64,000 nucleotides of DNA, taken from the sequence record OP688485. One strand, 5' to 3'. Below, piece by piece: positions 6,363 through 15,958 of this stretch (positions are counted from its first letter, which is position 1; every line of letters starts with the position of its first letter). This stretch comes from Escherichia phage EP_H11. Position numbers and translations under genes: made by a program. The notes beneath the pieces were generated by a model. The model did no database searches, was not told the origin of the DNA, and saw nothing but the letters and a program-made list of their open reading frames with translations.

Positions 6363-6397
6363 CCGCTTCTTTTACGGCTCCAAAGGCTGTTAAGGTG
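6363..6397 (+). promoter_or_regulatory. class A motif A2
   Basis: ccgcttcttttacggctccaaaggctgttaaggtg; 23 nt before the ATG at 6420. Confidence 0.5.
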
Positions 6398-6419
6398 TCG
6401 AAACTAATGAGGACAGAAC

Positions 6420-7160
6420 ATGTTTGGTAAACATATCGAGTGTAACTTCGTTCCTGGTACCAAAGTCACGAAGGCTTCACTGGGTAACGGAGGTACCTCC
6501 TACTTAGTCCAGAAGCATTTCCTCCAGTGGATGTTTCGTAATGAGATCATCTCTGGCCCAGTCCTGGATATGGGACTGGGTCGTGGTGAAATCGGTCTGG
6601 CACTCCGTAATGCTGGATTCGAAGGTCAGATCACTGGTCTGGACATCTGCGAAGACTACATCAAAGGCAGTGTAAATGTATATAGCGATATCTACATCTG
6701 CAATATAGTTGAGTTACTGAAAGATCTTCCTATTGAAGAGCTGGATAAATTCGGAACTATTATCTGGCTGGATGTTCTGGAGCATCTGGATGCTGAAGAT
6801 GGCCTGATGGTCCTGGAGAAGCTGTTCCAGTCTAAGGCTAAAATCGTTATCGGCACCCCTAACTACGAGTATCGTCAACGTGGTACCGAGACTAATCCTT
6901 TCGAGGAGCATAAGTCTCATTGGGACTGTCGACTCCTTACCCAGTTTAATCCAGATCTCGCACTGTTCGATAACATCGGTGCTGCTACTTATCTGTGGGA
7001 CCAACCAGATAAGACTGGTAATATTCCTCTGCTTAAGTACGAGCAGTCTAAGGTACAGAAACGTGAAGTGCCTAAGCTGCTGGAAGATACTGGATTTGGC
7101 GAAGGAATCTGGGATGTGTCCGCTAAGGTGAAGATAGCCGATCTTTCAGAATTAAAGTAA
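6420..7160 (+). CDS. class I SAM-dependent methyltransferase
   Basis: Motif I VLDMGLGRGEIG and the DVLEHL motif typical of Methyltransf_11-type enzymes. Confidence 0.6.
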   Translation: MFGKHIECNFVPGTKVTKASLGNGGTSYLVQKHFLQWMFRNEIISGPVLDMGLGRGEIGLALRNAGFEGQITGLDICEDYIKGSVNVYSDIYICNIVELLKDLPIEELDKFGTIIWLDVLEHLDAEDGLMVLEKLFQSKAKIVIGTPNYEYRQRGTETNPFEEHKSHWDCRLLTQFNPDLALFDNIGAATYLWDQPDKTGNIPLLKYEQSKVQKREVPKLLEDTGFGEGIWDVSAKVKIADLSELK

Positions 7161-7203
7161 TATATACATAGCCATCTTACGAGGTGGCTAGATATCTATT
7201 ATT

Positions 7204-7238
7204 TCGCTCTTTCTAGGGTTCGAAAGGCTGTTAGGTTG
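7204..7238 (+). promoter_or_regulatory. class A motif A3 (variant TTAG)
   Basis: tcgctctttctagggttcgaaaggctgttaggttg; 24 nt before the ATG at 7262. Confidence 0.5.
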
Positions 7239-7261
7239 TACAAGTTAACTGAGGAATTAAA

Positions 7262-13456: not shown

Positions 13457-13482
13457 GGAAAGATTCTTAATTGGAGAGAATA

Positions 13483-14205
13483 ATGAGAGACTATAGTATC
13501 CCAGGCTACAGTGTAATTATGTCCGGTGCACAGGGTACCGGTAAATCAACCTTGGCTAAAGGTTGGGAAGAATCAACTGAGTGTACTTTTCGTGCGGTAC
13601 AGACTCGTGATCATCTTCCGTTGGGAGTTACATCCCATATGGATATTCTGCGACTAGCTGTGGAAGATCCAATGGAAGCTGTGGAGTTCCAGCTACGTCT
13701 TATTCGCCAGAGAACTCAGATGTTTAAGGATGCCTACAATCGCGGCGAATTGATCGTCAGTGATCGTGCGGTATTCGATTCGTACGTTTACTTCCTGCTG
13801 CATAACAGTATGTTCGCCAGCCAGGAAGCTCGTGATGAGGCACTGCGTCTCAGTAACGAGTCTATTGATTATTATAACATGACTCTGTTCTTCAATACGA
13901 AGGATAAGAGTATCGAGGACAATAACTTCCGTGTTGTTGATCCGGAGTACTCTGTAGCAGTCAGTTCTACCCTCCTTAAGGTAACTATGCGTGCCTACGA
14001 GGAGCGATTCGGTGCTGCGTTGTGTAATTCTGTAACTCTGAATCATCCGGTGCATCCTGGATCAATCACAGCTCGTTTCACTAATACTGGTAAAGGTATT
14101 ATGATCCTGAATGAGCCATCTGGTATGATTCCTCAGGAAGCCCGTCTGGAGTTACTGTCCTCTGCAGTTAAGTCTATTGATTCAGTGCGTAAGGACTCTA
14201 AATGA
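13483..14205 (+). CDS. P-loop nucleotide/nucleoside-monophosphate kinase (dNMP kinase or modified-nucleotide/DNA kinase)
   Basis: Walker A GAQGTGKST. Start trimmed from TTG at 13471 to ATG at 13483 behind GGAG. Confidence 0.55.
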   Translation: MRDYSIPGYSVIMSGAQGTGKSTLAKGWEESTECTFRAVQTRDHLPLGVTSHMDILRLAVEDPMEAVEFQLRLIRQRTQMFKDAYNRGELIVSDRAVFDSYVYFLLHNSMFASQEARDEALRLSNESIDYYNMTLFFNTKDKSIEDNNFRVVDPEYSVAVSSTLLKVTMRAYEERFGAALCNSVTLNHPVHPGSITARFTNTGKGIMILNEPSGMIPQEARLELLSSAVKSIDSVRKDSK

Positions 14206-15275
14206 TCTCGGTAATTCGTGGTAACAGTAATACTGAAATCCTGGTTAACAGCATCAATGAGATGGATAAGGTTGGTGAGTTGCAGAAGTCTAAAACTTCT
14301 GTTAACTCCTCGGCGGTGGTATCCATTGGTCATGCTGTAGTTGAGTTAAGTAATCCGATTCATCGTTGGATGGCTCATCCAGAACGTAAAGACAATATCC
14401 TCGGAATCATGGGGGAAGTATTGTGGGTACTGTCTGGTGGCTATGAGATCGATAACTGGATGTCGATTATGGTTCCTCGCGCTAAGATGTTTAGCGATGA
14501 TATGGTTACCTGGCGTGGTGCTTACGGTGAGCGTCTGTATAACTACAATCAACTCCAGACCATAACAGATCGCCTCCGCTCTGATCTGGGTAACCGTAAG
14601 TGTGTAGCTACTATTCATGATCCCAGCCGTGATTCGGATGTAGGTCTGGTGAATAGCATCGGCAGCATCAATACAGCAGATATGATTTGTAACATTGCTC
14701 TGTCGTTTAAGTACCGTAATGGTGGTCTGGACTGCACGGTATTCAACCGTAGTAATGATTTGATCTGGGGATTGACTAACGTTAATCTGGTGGAGTTCAC
14801 GATCATTCAGGAAATCATCGCAACTATGCTCGGAGTGAACATGGGCAGCTATGTGGTGATGACGGACGATCTCCACTGGTATCCGGAAGTGTCGAACATC
14901 AAGAAACAGGTAAGTAATATCAGAGCTTATGTCGACGACATTAACGAAGCTCCGGTAACTACTATTGATCTCGGATCACTAAATTCCTGGCATAAGATCC
15001 GTACCTACTTCCAGCATTACATCACCACTATAGAAGATGCTGCTTCTCGTTATAATAGCGATCACAGTATTCTAGAATACGTAATGGAAGATGTTGGTCG
15101 AGAGTTCCAACCAGGATCAACTCTGGATGTAATGATGTGGTTAGCAGGTGCTCATTATCTATGTAAGACTACTGGAGCTCACATGTCTATCCAGTGCGAG
15201 CATCTGGTTAATTCACCATTCGTGAAATGGGTCGCGAACCGCCTCGGGGATAAGTCTCCGTTCATTCTGGAATAA
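14202..15275 (+). CDS. thymidylate synthase-family enzyme, probable pyrimidine dNMP hydroxymethylase
   Basis: ThyA core alignable: ICN (PCH position, catalytic Cys retained), SFKY (QFYV), LDC (LSC), FNRSND (YQRSxD). 5' end overlaps the kinase stop. Confidence 0.65.
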   Translation: MISVIRGNSNTEILVNSINEMDKVGELQKSKTSVNSSAVVSIGHAVVELSNPIHRWMAHPERKDNILGIMGEVLWVLSGGYEIDNWMSIMVPRAKMFSDDMVTWRGAYGERLYNYNQLQTITDRLRSDLGNRKCVATIHDPSRDSDVGLVNSIGSINTADMICNIALSFKYRNGGLDCTVFNRSNDLIWGLTNVNLVEFTIIQEIIATMLGVNMGSYVVMTDDLHWYPEVSNIKKQVSNIRAYVDDINEAPVTTIDLGSLNSWHKIRTYFQHYITTIEDAASRYNSDHSILEYVMEDVGREFQPGSTLDVMMWLAGAHYLCKTTGAHMSIQCEHLVNSPFVKWVANRLGDKSPFILE

Positions 15276-15310
15276 CCGCTCTTTTTAGGGCTCGAAAGGC
15301 TGTTAAGGTG
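15276..15310 (+). promoter_or_regulatory. class A motif A7
   Basis: ccgctctttttagggctcgaaaggctgttaaggtg; starts right after the upstream stop. Confidence 0.5.
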
Positions 15311-15358
15311 TGGGAGGCAACTTCCATACCTTTATTTTTGTAACTTAGGAGAAATTAC

Positions 15359-15958
15359 ATGAAAGATCTTTTTAAGGTACCAGTGTGTACCAATAACGTG
15401 AATCGTTTCGCAGGTAAGCAAGTACTGTCTCATCGCTCTACTATCTCGGAGCATAGCTTCGAAGTTACTTACTACTCTACTCTGATTGTTCAGAAACTGG
15501 TGATGGATGGATTTTTAACTGCTGAGCAGGGTCTGGAAGTAAATCAGTACTCGTTGGTTCACGACATTCCAGAGATCTTTACAGGTGATGTCCCCTACAC
15601 TGCTAAGGCTCGCTTCCCAGAGTTAAAAGAGACTCTGAATAAAGTTGAGCAGGAAATCTGGGAAGAGGTACTTCCTACTTTCCGCACTCCTGCATCTGCC
15701 GAAGCTAAGTTCATCTGTAAAGTTGCAGATGCGATTGCGGTATCTCGTGAGATCATGACTGAGTTCAGCATGGGTAACATCTTCTTTGGCGAAAGCGAGC
15801 TGGAGAACTGCCGCAACATCTTCAGTACCTGCTTCAATAAGTACAAAGACGAAGTGAGTGATGATGTATGGATGGGTACTCTCCAGTCTCTTCTCCATAT
15901 GGCACATGGTAGTTCAATCGAGCACCTGGTTAAAGAGGCTATTGGCAATGCAGATTAA
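15359..15958 (+). CDS. HD-domain 5'-deoxynucleotidase (YfbR-like)
   Basis: SEHSFEV and LVHDIPEIFTGDVPYTAKARF match the YfbR HD phosphohydrolase motifs. Confidence 0.7.
   Translation: MKDLFKVPVCTNNVNRFAGKQVLSHRSTISEHSFEVTYYSTLIVQKLVMDGFLTAEQGLEVNQYSLVHDIPEIFTGDVPYTAKARFPELKETLNKVEQEIWEEVLPTFRTPASAEAKFICKVADAIAVSREIMTEFSMGNIFFGESELENCRNIFSTCFNKYKDEVSDDVWMGTLQSLLHMAHGSSIEHLVKEAIGNAD

Follow-up and report, generated by a model that had tools for sequence, protein, structure and literature searches.

A ten-gene island of Escherichia phage EP_H11 with two modules and a probable role in thymidine hypermodification

The stretch of DNA analysed here, a 64,000-nt window of Escherichia phage EP_H11 (OP688485), contains ten consecutive plus-strand open reading frames at 6420-15958 (g1 to g10, Table 1). 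They raise the question of whether this phage modifies its DNA and, if so, which base is altered and whether the ten genes form one pathway. The genes are real: they lie where the first-pass annotation had placed them and are syntenic in Escherichia phage IME392 (93.6% nucleotide identity) and, as a variant of the block, in three metagenome contigs (L005, L006 and L011). The base composition of the island is that of the remaining window.

Table 1. Features of the island and related genes elsewhere in the window
Feature	Coordinates	Strand	Length or structure	Support or position
Terminator-like hairpin with T-run, left island boundary	6321..6349	+	9-pair stem, T-rich tail	After topoisomerase II A-subunit gene
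Bipartite promoter-like motif, copy 1	6364..6398	+	Core 6382-6392	CCGCTtCTTT...AAAGGCTGTTAAggTGT
g1, class-I SAM-dependent methyltransferase-like	6420..7160	+	246 aa	Sub-threshold Methyltransf_25/31/23/11 matches
g2, ATP-grasp-like ligase candidate	7262..8170	+	302 aa	Motifs and low-confidence AF2 model
g3, BCCT-family transporter	8174..9556	+	460 aa, ~12-13 TM segments	PF02028 1.6e-91
Strong hairpin with T-run	9592..9618	+	11 pairs, 7 GC	Between 9564 motif copy and g4 start
g4, PIG-L/LmbE-type zinc de-N-acetylase	9643..10254	+	203 aa	PF02585 3.4e-14, phrog_11796 2.2e-21
g5, GT-A-like glycosyltransferase candidate	10261..11295	+	344 aa	Motifs only
g6, distant T4 beta-glucosyltransferase homologue, GT63-like	11343..12422	+	359 aa	Direct comparison with T4 Bgt
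g7, HMUDK_hel/aGPT-Pplase clade-1 protein	12422..13393	+	323 aa	PF18723 4.4e-35
g8, AAA_28/dNK-like P-loop kinase	13483..14205	+	240 aa from ATG	AAA_28 2.1e-9
g9, dUMP hydroxymethylase-type ThyA paralogue	14202..15275	+	357 aa	ThyA family 2e-11, phrog_3676 6e-71
g10, YfbR-like HD 5'-deoxynucleotidase or phosphohydrolase	15359..15958	+	199 aa	PF12917 1.6e-14, phrog_7076 5.9e-19
Family-A DNA polymerase, SP-15/YerA41-like subfamily	18909..22208	+	1099 aa	Solved-relative search
dUTPase	56040-56510	+		PF00692 2.4e-35
dCTP deaminase	56781-57404	+		PF22769 1.1e-23

The cassette lies amid replication genes, all under one type of promoter-like motif. The core of this motif, AAAGGCTGTTA, has 16 exact copies on the plus strand of the window against about one expected, and the copies are kept at matching positions in IME392 and L005. 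Six are in the island (at 6382, 7223, 9564, 11303, 13439 and 15295), which divides the ten genes into six units, and the earlier statement that every gene has a motif of its own does not hold. At four of the gene junctions the spacing is between -4 and +6 nt. The candidate ligase gene g2 shares a transcription unit with the BCCT gene g3, the stop codon of g6 and the start codon of g7 overlap (TAATG), with translational coupling of the two, and the g8 stop overlaps the g9 start (ATGA). The hairpin before g4 is a possible attenuator or 5' stem-loop.

Gene content in related loci indicates that the island is composed of two modules with differing evolutionary histories and not of a single ten-gene pathway, as had been assumed. 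Module A consists of the g8 kinase, the g9 ThyA paralogue and the g10 HD nucleotidase; module B (g1 to g7) is accessory. The kinase-ThyA-HD trio is kept, with overlapping genes, in the window, L005, Acinetobacter phage Ab1-TPeters and the IMG/VR contig L012. The last two represent further phage lineages with the trio and without the other cassette genes: searches of 73 kb of Ab1-TPeters and of the 16.5-kb L012 locus (kinase +/- 8 kb) gave no homologue of g1 to g7. A g10-family protein is encoded 3' of the ThyA paralogue in M6 (gp59), Ab1-TPeters and L012, and the HD gene adjoins the kinase gene in RP13. The slot 3' of the topoisomerase II genes holds two GT4 glycosyltransferases in Ab1-TPeters and a richer cassette in L005, L006 and L011, with DXD-GT-like, PS-decarboxylase-like and second ATP-grasp-like proteins. 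The L005-type variant lacks g1, and its BCCT transporter has 89% amino acid identity to g3, the highest among the accessory genes.

The nature of the base is indicated by g9. PF00303 is its only Pfam match, and its best solved relative is the CMP 5-hydroxymethylase MilA (3.3e-15), compared with 4.5e-6 for the best thymidylate synthase. The nearest phage proteins are those of ViI-like phages (42-44% identity, ~1e-50), SPO1 gp29 (9e-29), SP8 and M6-like phages (8.7e-24 for M6 gp58). The catalytic Cys is kept, the position of N177 in thymidylate synthase has the uracil-specifying Asn, and a C-terminal extension of ~100 aa is present as in M6 gp58 and MilA. In these comparisons g9 groups with the dUMP hydroxymethylases of SPO1 (gp29), ViI and M6, apart from thymidylate synthases, and this grouping together with the Asn residue points to thymidine modified via 5-hmdU rather than to hmC. 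The proposal of a DNA-hypermodification island around a pyrimidine hydroxymethylase is supported, and the check for an ordinary thymidylate synthase was negative; the analogy with the hmC of T-even phages had pointed to the wrong base.

The YfbR-like HD call for g10 holds by homology, as do the BCCT, PIG-L and ThyA calls. The P-loop kinase call for g8 is weaker and comes from AAA_28, which matches 58 of 58 sampled family members (dNK 25); the 5-hmdU DNA kinase profile PF18748 matches none. Phage homologues of g8 are found only in IME392, Ab1-TPeters and RP13, and g8, which could also start from a TTG at 13471, is the sole small P-loop kinase across the whole IME392 genome. The 323-aa product of g7, previously listed as unknown, belongs to PF18723 (HMUDK_hel), which links the island to known thymidine-hypermodification systems. 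Its counterparts M6 gp55 and RP13 ORF120 match the same profile, and homologues occur in 376 phage records, mainly in ViI-like, M6-like and SP10-like thymidine-hypermodifying groups. In alignment, Cys301 of g7 falls on Cys247, the catalytic residue of the glycine:DNA transferase; the PF18723 family is without demonstrated activity, and M6 gp55 is dispensable in vitro. The canonical 5-hmdU DNA kinase (PF18748) and the amino-acid:DNA transferase (ADDT, PF18724) are absent from the window and from the IME392 genome.

No significant match to g6 was found among Pfam, PHROG and NCBIfam profiles, and the Bgt-like call stands as distant homology on direct comparison with T4 Bgt. The global alignment is collinear with 27% identity, and hhalign gives E 0.0019, a probability of 14% and 34% identity over 95 C-terminal columns. 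Five catalytic or UDP-binding residues of Bgt (D100, R191, R195, R269 and E272) are all kept in g6 (D90, R168, R171, R275 and E278). The Smith-Waterman score is 73 against 36+-5 for shuffled sequences, none of 3500 shuffles scoring as high, and g6 ranks first when Bgt is searched against 756 control ORFs (phmmer E 0.11, blastp E 1.4). These values argue for a homology that is distant, statistically modest and more weakly supported than the family assignments of g3, g4, g7 and g10. No resemblance to T4 Agt or GT4 enzymes was seen on comparison. Both g5 and g6 are acidic; the pI of g6 is 5.7, compared with 9.0 for the basic T4 Bgt.

For g2 and g5 there is no Pfam, PHROG or NCBIfam match even at E<=5, and the ATP-grasp-like and GT-A calls are carried by motifs and one low-confidence model. 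In g5 the motifs IIPTYHR, VDDD and GEDCY are invariant and, at motif level, appear to fit the R...DDD...EDY/F signature of phage and JGT-type DNA GT-A enzymes (bioRxiv 10.1101/2023.12.21.572611). The invariant motifs of g2 are RRDRVHGGKGAG and FYIE(T/S)NFR; its AF2 model has a pLDDT of 40.7 (the two models of cassette proteins reach ~41 each, too low for use), and the Foldseek PDB top 50 are mostly ATP-grasp enzymes, none significant. The BCCT transporter g3 is a minimal form without long terminal domains and aligns with BetP over the full length (2.7e-48). W189, W194, Y197, W374 and W377 of its Trp box are retained; W373 is changed to Ala and G153 to Ser. The g2-BCCT pair is kept in contig L010 with 37-40% identity (37% for g2), and because of this and the retained Trp box g2 and g3 are taken to work together. 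In g4 the catalytic motifs SPHHDDE and HQDH are intact and there are weak matches to BshB1 and BshB2. The methyltransferase call for g1 has the motif VLDMGLGRG in its favour, but the class-I SAM-methyltransferase matches are below threshold (25.1 bits, cut-off 27), with weak UbiG/BchM-like matches and phrog_3382 methyltransferase at E 0.014. All cassette products are soluble except the BCCT transporter, and the putative glycosyltransferases lack membrane segments.

Thymidine hypermodification derived from 5-hmdU is known from phages M6, ViI, PhiW-14, SP10 and PaMx11 (Lee et al. 2018 PMC5889632; 2022 PMC8989533; structures PMC11472151). The island resembles M6-type systems in that a hydroxymethylase-type ThyA paralogue is followed by a YfbR-like HD protein (M6 gp58/gp59), in the PF18723 protein with a conserved Cys beside a P-loop kinase, and in the predicted sequence of pre-replicative hmdU synthesis and post-replicative tailoring. 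It differs in the absence of the PF18748 kinase, the PF18724 transferase and PLP, radical-SAM and flavin tailoring enzymes, and in the presence of Bgt-like, GT-A-like, PIG-L, ATP-grasp-like, BCCT and methyltransferase genes. With the glucosyl-hmC of T-even phages (gp42 with Agt/Bgt) it shares a ThyA-superfamily hydroxymethylase, a predicted post-replicative Bgt-type transferase and the five Bgt residues. However, the base is derived from uracil, with Asn instead of Asp at the specificity position, g9 has no detectable BLASTP similarity to T4 gp42, the Bgt relative is divergent and acidic, Agt has no relative here, and several additional tailoring genes are present.

The DNA polymerase provides a further comparison. 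Among solved structures it comes closest to 9qhs (1142 aa, 8.5e-40), followed by the ordinary Pol I 8jrb (6e-23) and 9qlh/9qli (3e-21), whose 1306-aa chains match the stated length of the YerA41 enzyme. Characterised members of this SP-15/YerA41-like group have sugar-hypermodified T, and the RP13-like phages (SP-15, YerA41, Carin-5) have a C5-pentyl linker with phosphate on thymidine (PMC12686479; bioRxiv 10.1101/2025.03.26.645540). EP_H11 shares with them the polymerase subfamily, dCTP deaminase, dUTPase, a ThyA paralogue, and polymerase-proximal genes for glycosyltransferases and deacetylases. The linker and phosphate chemistry is theirs, whereas the EP_H11 cassette is known from genes alone; the nucleotidyltransferase and polysaccharide deacetylase of Carin-5 are of other families, and BCCT, ATP-grasp-like and Bgt-like genes are unreported for these phages in the same papers. 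The product class predicted here, 5-hydroxymethyluracil bearing an O-linked sugar in DNA, is also that of base J, made in kinetoplastids by the JBP hydroxylase and the GT-A enzyme JGT, and of phage GT-A/GT-B DNA glycosyltransferases tied to 5mYOX or ThyS; ThyS-associated GT-A and GT-B cassettes are frequent in viromes (bioRxiv 10.1101/2023.12.21.572611). IME392 is absent from the supplement of that study. The putative GT-A enzyme g5 has the R...DDD...ED(x)Y signature of the JGT-like phage enzymes, but general glycosyltransferase HMMs miss both g5 and g6, and hmU would be formed pre-replicatively by a ThyA paralogue rather than by a dioxygenase.

On balance it is probable, with considerable room for doubt, that the two modules jointly make a hypermodified thymidine in which 5-hmdU replaces T and is then decorated with sugar in the DNA. 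In module A, dCTP deaminase and dUTPase would supply dUMP from dCTP via dUTP, g9 would convert it to 5-hm-dUMP, g8 would probably phosphorylate this on the way to the triphosphate, g10 would probably clear the competing dTMP or dTTP pool, and the SP-15-type polymerase would incorporate 5-hmdU instead of T. Module B would then act after replication. Its direction towards DNA is suggested by the PF18723 membership and Cys of g7, the Bgt residues of g6, the overlap of g6 and g7, the PIG-L motifs, and the solubility of all products except the BCCT transporter. The Bgt-like transferase would place a sugar on the 5-hydroxymethyl group and g7 may act by flipping or activating the base. The PIG-L enzyme suggests that the sugar is an N-acetylhexosamine, which g4 would de-N-acetylate to an amino sugar, and g5 would add or extend sugar. 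The Trp box of g3 suggests import of a quaternary-ammonium solute such as betaine, which the candidate ligase g2 would join, and g1 would methylate. We infer the order of these steps, which sugar is used, the addition of an acyl or quaternary-amine group, what g8 phosphorylates and what g7 does. Counting against this reading are the absence of significant HMM matches for g2, g5 and g6, the modest statistics of the Bgt link, the acidity of g6 compared with Bgt, the lack of an established activity in the g7 family, a possible plain osmolyte-uptake role of g3, and the C5-pentyl linker and phosphate of the polymerase-group relatives in place of directly glycosylated hmU. Furthermore, if g7 is an active transferase the base needs a leaving group and thus a DNA kinase, which this route lacks.

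Such a kinase is central to an otherwise canonical phosphate-activated route, which is considered rather unlikely. There g8 would be a divergent 5-hmdU DNA kinase giving 5-phosphomethyl-dU, and g7, through its Cys nucleophile, would exchange the phosphate for a small nucleophile, perhaps an amino acid or the solute that the BCCT transporter imports, before elaboration of the linker by the glycosyltransferases, deacetylase, ligase and methyltransferase; alternatively the phosphate would be retained and glycosylated, on the model of the linker-phosphate-sugar of SP-15, YerA41 and Carin-5, whose modifications include phosphate. The catalytic-type Cys of g7 is kept, and g7 adjoins g8 like the kinase and helical protein of M6 (gp54/gp55), which are fused in SP10 gp186. 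As the only small P-loop kinase of IME392, g8 is also the best, weak match of M6 gp54 (hhalign E 2.5e-6 for the g8 family, P-loop region only), and a g8-type kinase is present in both examined genomes of this group that have HMUDK_hel and no canonical kinase, IME392 and RP13. On the other hand, the profile counts for the g8 family favour AAA_28 and dNK over PF18748, and the family retains an FQ...DRS...Y pattern that resembles the base pocket of deoxynucleoside kinases. The kinase travels with ThyA and HD, also in the Ab1-TPeters and L012 regions where no HMUDK_hel was found, ADDT is missing, and only partial modification would leave a free hydroxymethyl group for a Bgt-like enzyme to use.

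It is improbable that module A alone gives plain hmdU substitution while g1 to g6 serve a non-DNA target, such as host envelope glycans, a thiol-like or compatible-solute low-molecular-weight metabolite, or osmolyte uptake in infection. In mycothiol and bacillithiol synthesis (MshA/B/C, BshA/B/C) a glycosyltransferase is followed by a PIG-L/LmbE deacetylase and an ATP-dependent ligase. The same order of enzyme classes here would give an N-acylated amino sugar, and g4 has the BshB1/BshB2 matches; the likeness is one of logic, with homology for PIG-L alone. In the hypermodification reading the acceptor would be a DNA base, and the ligase is ATP-grasp-like instead of MshC- or BshC-like. The BCCT gene could be a mere auxiliary for osmoprotectant uptake, the normal role of the family, and the acidity of g5 and g6 and the lack of a significant family for g2, g5 and g6 agree with a target other than DNA. 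Against this, g6 is specifically Bgt-like with catalytic residues kept, unlike T4 Agt and GT4 enzymes, and is coupled to a member of a DNA-base-modifying family; the cassette shares its motif with replication genes, relatives have glycosyltransferases in the same slot, and no membrane segment is found in the putative glycosyltransferases. That g9 is an ordinary thymidylate synthase, the DNA canonical and the cluster no more than nucleotide-metabolism genes that happen to lie beside unrelated ones is hardly credible. The IME392 annotation "putative thymidylate synthase" and the sole match to PF00303 agree with it, but among solved relatives a hydroxymethylase outranks the best thymidylate synthase, with an E-value nine orders of magnitude lower. 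All of the closest phage proteins belong to hmdU producers, SPO1 gp29 among them; the C-terminal extension is like that of M6 gp58 and MilA; the island also encodes a PF18723 protein, and gene order is preserved across divergent relatives.

Modification of T in IME392 was predicted earlier from its aGPT-Pplase gene in two 2025 papers (bioRxiv 10.1101/2025.03.26.645540; PMC12686479), but the cassette itself is undescribed, and the initial impression that the complete gene set corresponds to no pathway yet described is supported. Most probably the ten genes replace thymine by hydroxymethyluracil, on which a tailored sugar is then placed in the DNA. This would be a known strategy with a new recipe, with an enzyme set that described pathways do not use and that includes the phage's own small-molecule importer.

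The base modified in this phage is predicted to be thymidine and not cytosine, judging by g9, the ThyA paralogue of the island. Among solved structures, g9 is nearest to MilA, a CMP 5-hydroxymethylase (3.3e-15, against 4.5e-6 for the best thymidylate synthase), which upholds the hydroxymethylase proposed in the first-pass annotation; the reading of g9 as an ordinary thymidylate synthase, with which it shares the family and the catalytic Cys, is effectively excluded. Cytosine-specific enzymes have Asp at the position of Asn177 in E. coli thymidylate synthase, as in T4 gp42. The aligned residue is Asp in MilA and Asn in g9. 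The nearest phage homologues are found in ViI-like Ackermannviridae (42-44% identity, about 1e-50), followed by SPO1 gp29 (9e-29), SP8 and M6-like phages, all of which are 5-hmdU producers, and similarity between g9 and T4 gp42 is not detectable. The analogy with the hmC of T-even phages drawn at first pass therefore concerned the wrong base, and a cytosine-based reading is rejected because of the specificity Asn and the relatives of g9. The dUTPase and the dCTP deaminase encoded further downstream complete a supply line from dCTP through dUTP to dUMP.

Other family names given to the island genes at first pass are borne out by profile searches: BCCT transporter for g3 (PF02028, 1.6e-91), PIG-L/LmbE deacetylase for g4 (PF02585, 3.4e-14, 53.9 bits against a cut-off of 28.2, with the metal-binding and catalytic His/Asp motifs PHHDDE and HQDH intact), P-loop kinase for g8 (AAA_28, 2.1e-9), ThyA-family enzyme for g9 (phrog_3676, 6e-71) and YfbR-like HD protein for g10 (1.6e-14). 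The class-I methyltransferase matches of g1 are all sub-threshold. No significant match to g2, g5 or g6 was found in Pfam (E<=5), PHROGs (E<=1), NCBIfam or PDB profiles, and among 5.8 billion proteins they have four, three and two homologues, respectively. The island is 93.6% identical in nucleotide sequence to the sister Escherichia phage vB_EcoM_IME392, in whose annotation eight of the ten counterparts are hypothetical. Recent horizontal acquisition is rejected on composition because GC and GC3 are the same as in the remaining window.

Coordinates of the features discussed (window positions unless another sequence is named)
Feature	Position	Strand	Remarks
Topoisomerase II subunit genes	3050-6315		upstream neighbour of island
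Ten-ORF island (g1-g10)	6420-15958	+	between topoisomerase II subunit genes and primase-helicase-PolA block
Primase-helicase-PolA block	16258-22208		downstream neighbour of island
ORF with RNA polymerase beta' (Rpb1) domains 3-5	26582-28096
ORF with RNA polymerase beta' (Rpb1) domains 1-2	29676-31244
dUTPase	56040-56510
dCTP deaminase	56781-57404
Motif copies	3033, 6382, 7223, 9564, 11303, 13439, 15295, 18879, 22480, 32906, 38067, 45024, 50219, 51616, 54331, 55406	+
Slot after topoisomerase II genes, Acinetobacter phage Ab1-TPeters (L008)	11704-16832		516-aa protein and two GT4 glycosyltransferases
Variant cassette region, metagenome contigs	L005 1956-5860; L006 1808-5712; L011 3-2838

The window (1-64000) is a fragment of a phage genome. 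Its large ORFs are all on the plus strand as far as about 59.4 kb, with a rising cumulative GC skew, and no tRNA genes were found across the 64 kb. Between g10 and the primase lies a conserved plus-strand ORF of about 108 aa (15942-16268), which is unannotated in IME392, is 57% identical in L005 and has no match in a Pfam search; started from a GTG, this ORF is longer and runs into the end of g10.

The kinase, ThyA and HD genes (g8-g9-g10) recur as a trio of overlapping genes in Ab1-TPeters and in a 110-kb IMG/VR contig (L012), in both followed by primase, helicase and polymerase, and in Ralstonia phage RP13 the HD gene adjoins the kinase gene. Searches of 73 kb of Ab1-TPeters and of a 16.5-kb L012 locus (8 kb on each side of the kinase) found none of g1-g7. 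We therefore take the trio to be the core module for 5-hmdU nucleotides, to which g1-g7 are an accessory cassette. Such cassettes have a hot spot in the slot that follows the topoisomerase genes. In Ab1-TPeters the trio lies 36 kb from this slot, and one of the two GT4 enzymes in the slot matches a 'GT4 in conflict systems' model.

A variant of the cassette is present in three metagenome contigs, where g2-g7 are kept at 61-89% amino acid identity and the methyltransferase is replaced. The replacements are four proteins and two small ORFs (42 and 151 aa). One of the four is DXD-glycosyltransferase-like (260 aa); another, of 340 aa, matches the T2/T6 beta-glucosyl-HMC-alpha-glucosyltransferase PHROG very weakly; the remaining two are PS-decarboxylase-like (2.1e-7) and a second ATP-grasp-like protein (286 aa). 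The swap suggests that sister phages end with a different modification. The extra ligase and decarboxylase echo the append-then-decarboxylate logic of known thymidine hypermodifications. Comparisons by hhalign found no relationship between g2 and the L005 ATP-grasp-like protein, or between g5 and the L005 DXD protein.

The link to known thymidine hypermodification is made by g7, a 323-aa protein regarded as unknown at first pass, which belongs to PF18723 (HMUDK_hel, 4.4e-35). The Pfam families were calibrated on the proteins of phage M6: gp51, the proven glycine:DNA transferase, is PF18724; gp54, the proven 5-hmdU DNA kinase, is PF18748 (7.7e-18); and gp55, an uncharacterised paralogue that is dispensable in vitro, is PF18723 (8.1e-56). 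Both g7 and RP13 ORF120 (3e-47) match PF18723 only. Homologues of g7 are found in 376 phage records, mainly of ViI-, M6- and SP10-type groups. An invariant Cys in the alignment of g7, its relatives, gp55 and gp51 (g7 Cys301) aligns with Cys247 of the solved PaMx11 transferase, the nucleophile attacking C6, and because of this match g7 may be catalytically competent. PF18724 (ADDT, aGPT-Pplase2) has no match in the ten island proteins, phmmer with M6 gp51 found none in the window or the IME392 genome, and a PF18748 (HMUDK_HMUD1) kinase is absent from the window and from the whole IME392 genome. The cassette thus shares with the 5-hmdU system of Lee et al. the uracil-specific dUMP hydroxymethylase (g9) and the aGPT-Pplase clade-1/HMUDK_hel protein (g7); unlike that system, it has neither the PF18724 amino-acid:DNA transferase nor the PF18748 DNA kinase.

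The T4 Bgt-like character of g6 claimed at first pass has modest support from direct comparison. With hhalign the g6 family aligns with T4 Bgt over 95 C-terminal columns (34% identity, E 0.0019), and the two proteins (359 and 351 aa) can be aligned globally and collinearly from end to end with 27% identity. The Smith-Waterman score of 73 compares with 36+-5 for shuffled sequences (z = 7.1; none of 3500 shuffles reaches 73) and with 54 for the next-best of 191 real ORFs, and g6 is the top match of Bgt among 756 control ORFs. Five invariant residues of g6 (D90, R168, R171, R275 and E278) align with Bgt D100, the catalytic base, and with the UDP-binding R191, R195, R269 and E272; g6 would thereby share the active-site set of this GT63 enzyme. 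D100 has also been described as a catalytic residue (bioRxiv 10.1101/2023.12.21.572611). The pair is not significant by phmmer (E 0.11) or blastp (E 1.4) alone, and the proteins differ in charge, with a pI of 5.7 (acidic) for g6 versus 9.0 (basic) for T4 Bgt. An AlphaFold2 model from a three-sequence alignment (pLDDT 41.5) covers only the N-terminal flavodoxin-like half, and Foldseek on this low-confidence model gave nothing significant, only flavodoxin-like noise. No relationship was found by hhalign between g6 and T4 Agt or the GT4 enzymes of Ab1-TPeters and RP13, and a scan of IMG/VR with the g6 and Bgt alignment found no relatives.

The first-pass naming of g5 as a GT-A enzyme stands on its motifs and not on profile matches. 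By inspection, the residues invariant in g5 and its three homologues (IIPTYHR, VDDD and GEDCY, that is R14, D106-D108 and E188-D189-C-Y191) fit R...DDD...EDY/F, the active-site signature of JGT-like phage DNA GT-A enzymes (bioRxiv 10.1101/2023.12.21.572611); GT-A homology was not detected in the Pfam, PHROG, NCBIfam and PDB-profile searches. Similarly, the ATP-grasp-like label of g2 draws on motifs, and HMM and PDB-profile searches gave no match: the invariant RRDRVHGGKGAG and FYIE(T/S)NFR are candidates for the ATP-grasp glycine-rich loop and ExN motif. Nearly all top Foldseek matches of a low-confidence AlphaFold2 model of g2 (five-sequence alignment, pLDDT 40.7) are ATP-grasp ligases, none of them significant (best E 4.6e-3), and a scan of IMG/VR with the g2 alignment found no relatives. 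In the unrelated short contig L010, a g2 homologue (37% identical) is followed by an overlapping BCCT gene (40% identity, PF02028 1.3e-18), and the pairing of ligase-like and transporter genes is therefore conserved across deep divergence.

The transporter g3 is the best-conserved accessory gene, with 89% amino acid identity in L005. It aligns with BetP end to end and keeps the Trp (aromatic) box (W189, W194, Y197 and W374) as well as W377, with Ala for W373 and Ser for G153. This points to a trimethylammonium-type solute. In Vibrio phage 1.031.O (MG592415, 8917-10822) the gene immediately after that of a BCCT-like membrane protein encodes a member of the LicD (phosphocholine transferase) family, a second, independent phage transporter paired with a quaternary-ammonium-attaching enzyme.

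The island appears to be transcribed in units. The motif core AAAGGCTGTTA has 16 plus-strand copies in the window against about one expected, and belongs to a roughly 40-nt bipartite element (CCGCTCTTT-N8/9-AAAGGCTGTTAA-NN-TGT), usually placed 38-44 nt upstream of the start codon. The element is found ahead of many early and replication genes and is kept in IME392 and in L005; it is not in the examined region of Ab1-TPeters. It is probably a phage-specific promoter. Each of the ten genes was said at first pass to have its own class A motif; the motif is indeed in the island, in six copies only, giving the units [g1] [g2-g3] [g4-g5] [g6-g7] [g8-g9] [g10]. Within these units g6/g7 (TAATG) and g8/g9 (ATGA) overlap, and the gaps are 3 nt for g2/g3 and 6 nt for g4/g5. 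Sigma-70-like sites do not exceed chance, and sigma-70 promoters are therefore rejected as what drives the island. A strong hairpin with a T-run follows the motif before g4 (9564-9625) and before g10 (15295-15345), and at 11303-11330 and 32906-32960 the core of the motif pairs with a complementary stretch further downstream, with a T-run following at the latter. Such structures may serve as attenuators or 5' stem-loops; alternatively, the motif may act in RNA. The two beta'-like ORFs have their domains in swapped order and are labelled beta and beta' subunits in IME392. The arrangement points to a multisubunit RNA polymerase that the phage encodes in split form, as AR9- and phiKZ-type phages do, and its subunits may read the bipartite motif.

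The family-A DNA polymerase of the phage is of the long type and belongs to the same subfamily as those of the SP-15/YerA41-like ('RP13-like') phages. By sequence it is nearest to the solved SP-15-like enzymes (9qhs at 8.5e-40, and 9qlh/9qli, with chains of 1306 aa, the length given for the YerA41 polymerase). Residues 1-350, where a UDG-like N-terminal domain would lie, have no Pfam match. A family-X DNA polymerase (thumb and HhH domains) is encoded beside an NAD-dependent ligase-like gene at 37272-40053; such a pairing has been reported in SP-15-like phages as a base-excision-repair module.

In the proposed mechanism, g8-g10 would replace dTTP by 5-hm-dUTP before replication and g1-g7 would decorate 5-hmdU within the DNA. 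The Bgt-like g6, coupled to g7, would put a sugar on the hydroxymethyl group; the PIG-L deacetylase g4 would imply conversion of an N-acetylhexosamine to an amino sugar; g5 would add or extend a sugar, g2 would join the solute imported by g3, and g1 would methylate. The family assignments and the uracil specificity rest on tests; how the steps are ordered, which sugar is used and that it is acylated are inferred. A phosphate-activated route is the chief rival: g8 would be a divergent DNA kinase and g7 the transferase, with the sugars placed on a linker or phosphate. The position of g8 beside g7, like that of gp54 beside gp55, agrees with it, as do the inclusion of phosphate in the modifications of SP-15, YerA41 and Carin-5 and the lack of any other kinase candidate, the g8 homologue being the sole small P-loop kinase in the IME392 genome. 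The g8 family has 156 representatives in a 50%-identity protein library, and in a sample of 58 (g8 and 57 relatives) AAA_28 is matched by all, dNK by 25 and PF18748 by none. Its conserved residues (F73-Q74, D98-R99, Y107 and R154) may resemble a deoxynucleoside-kinase base pocket. These matches and residues, with the ThyA-HD synteny, favour a 5-hm-dUMP kinase. The substrate was not discriminated by hhalign of the family against M6 gp54, a Tmk and a dNMP kinase, and a PDB profile search gave P-loop matches only. We hold a nucleotide kinase to be somewhat the better bet, a DNA kinase to be a serious but less probable one, and both or neither to be improbable.

An action of g1-g6 on a non-DNA target, such as the glycosyltransferases could have, is unlikely because of the links of g6 to Bgt and of g7 to hypermodification, and because of the genomic setting. 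A bolder reading of the decoration of 5-hmdU in DNA is a base-J-like nucleotide with an amino sugar O-linked to 5-hydroxymethyluracil and acylated by the ATP-grasp ligase with a BCCT-imported quaternary-ammonium compound such as betaine. This reading is speculative and rather unlikely. If true, it would be the first DNA modification with a building block taken from the medium by a virus-encoded transporter, and DNA would gain a permanently charged group through chemistry that has no relation to the known amino-acid:DNA transferases.

Thymidine hypermodifications guard phage DNA against CRISPR nucleases and restriction. They are also an obstacle to sequencing and amplification, and enzymes for DNA base labelling have come from them. 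To our knowledge, all pathways worked out so far use a PF18748 kinase and an amino-acid:DNA transferase. The present cassette has neither; its Bgt-type transferase is accompanied by a deacetylase, a methyltransferase and a pair of ligase and transporter. The product is therefore probably a sugar-based dT derivative not described before, and 5-hmdU may be activated or decorated in a new way. Thymidine modification has been predicted in IME392, EP_H11 and RP13 from the aGPT-Pplase gene in a 2025 preprint in which a 5-hmdU DNA kinase could not be detected (bioRxiv 10.1101/2025.03.26.645540), and g8 as the sole small P-loop kinase, with no PF18748 or PF18724 in IME392, agrees with that report. IME392 is listed there and in PMC12686479, among 'RP13-like' phages with a ThyA paralogue and dCTP deaminase. 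Viromes commonly contain ThyS cassettes that include GT-A or GT-B enzymes (bioRxiv 10.1101/2023.12.21.572611), and IME392 is not mentioned in the supplement of that study. A literature search found no paper on this lineage's genes for the BCCT, PIG-L, ATP-grasp-like or Bgt-like proteins. That the genome is T-modified has thus been predicted in print in general terms, whereas the enzymology implied by the cassette has not. The chemistry is directly testable because the host is E. coli and IME392 has been isolated. The cassette offers a test for the role of the PF18723 paralogue, uncharacterised since 2013, and is a candidate explanation for the kinase gap in the polymerase preprint.
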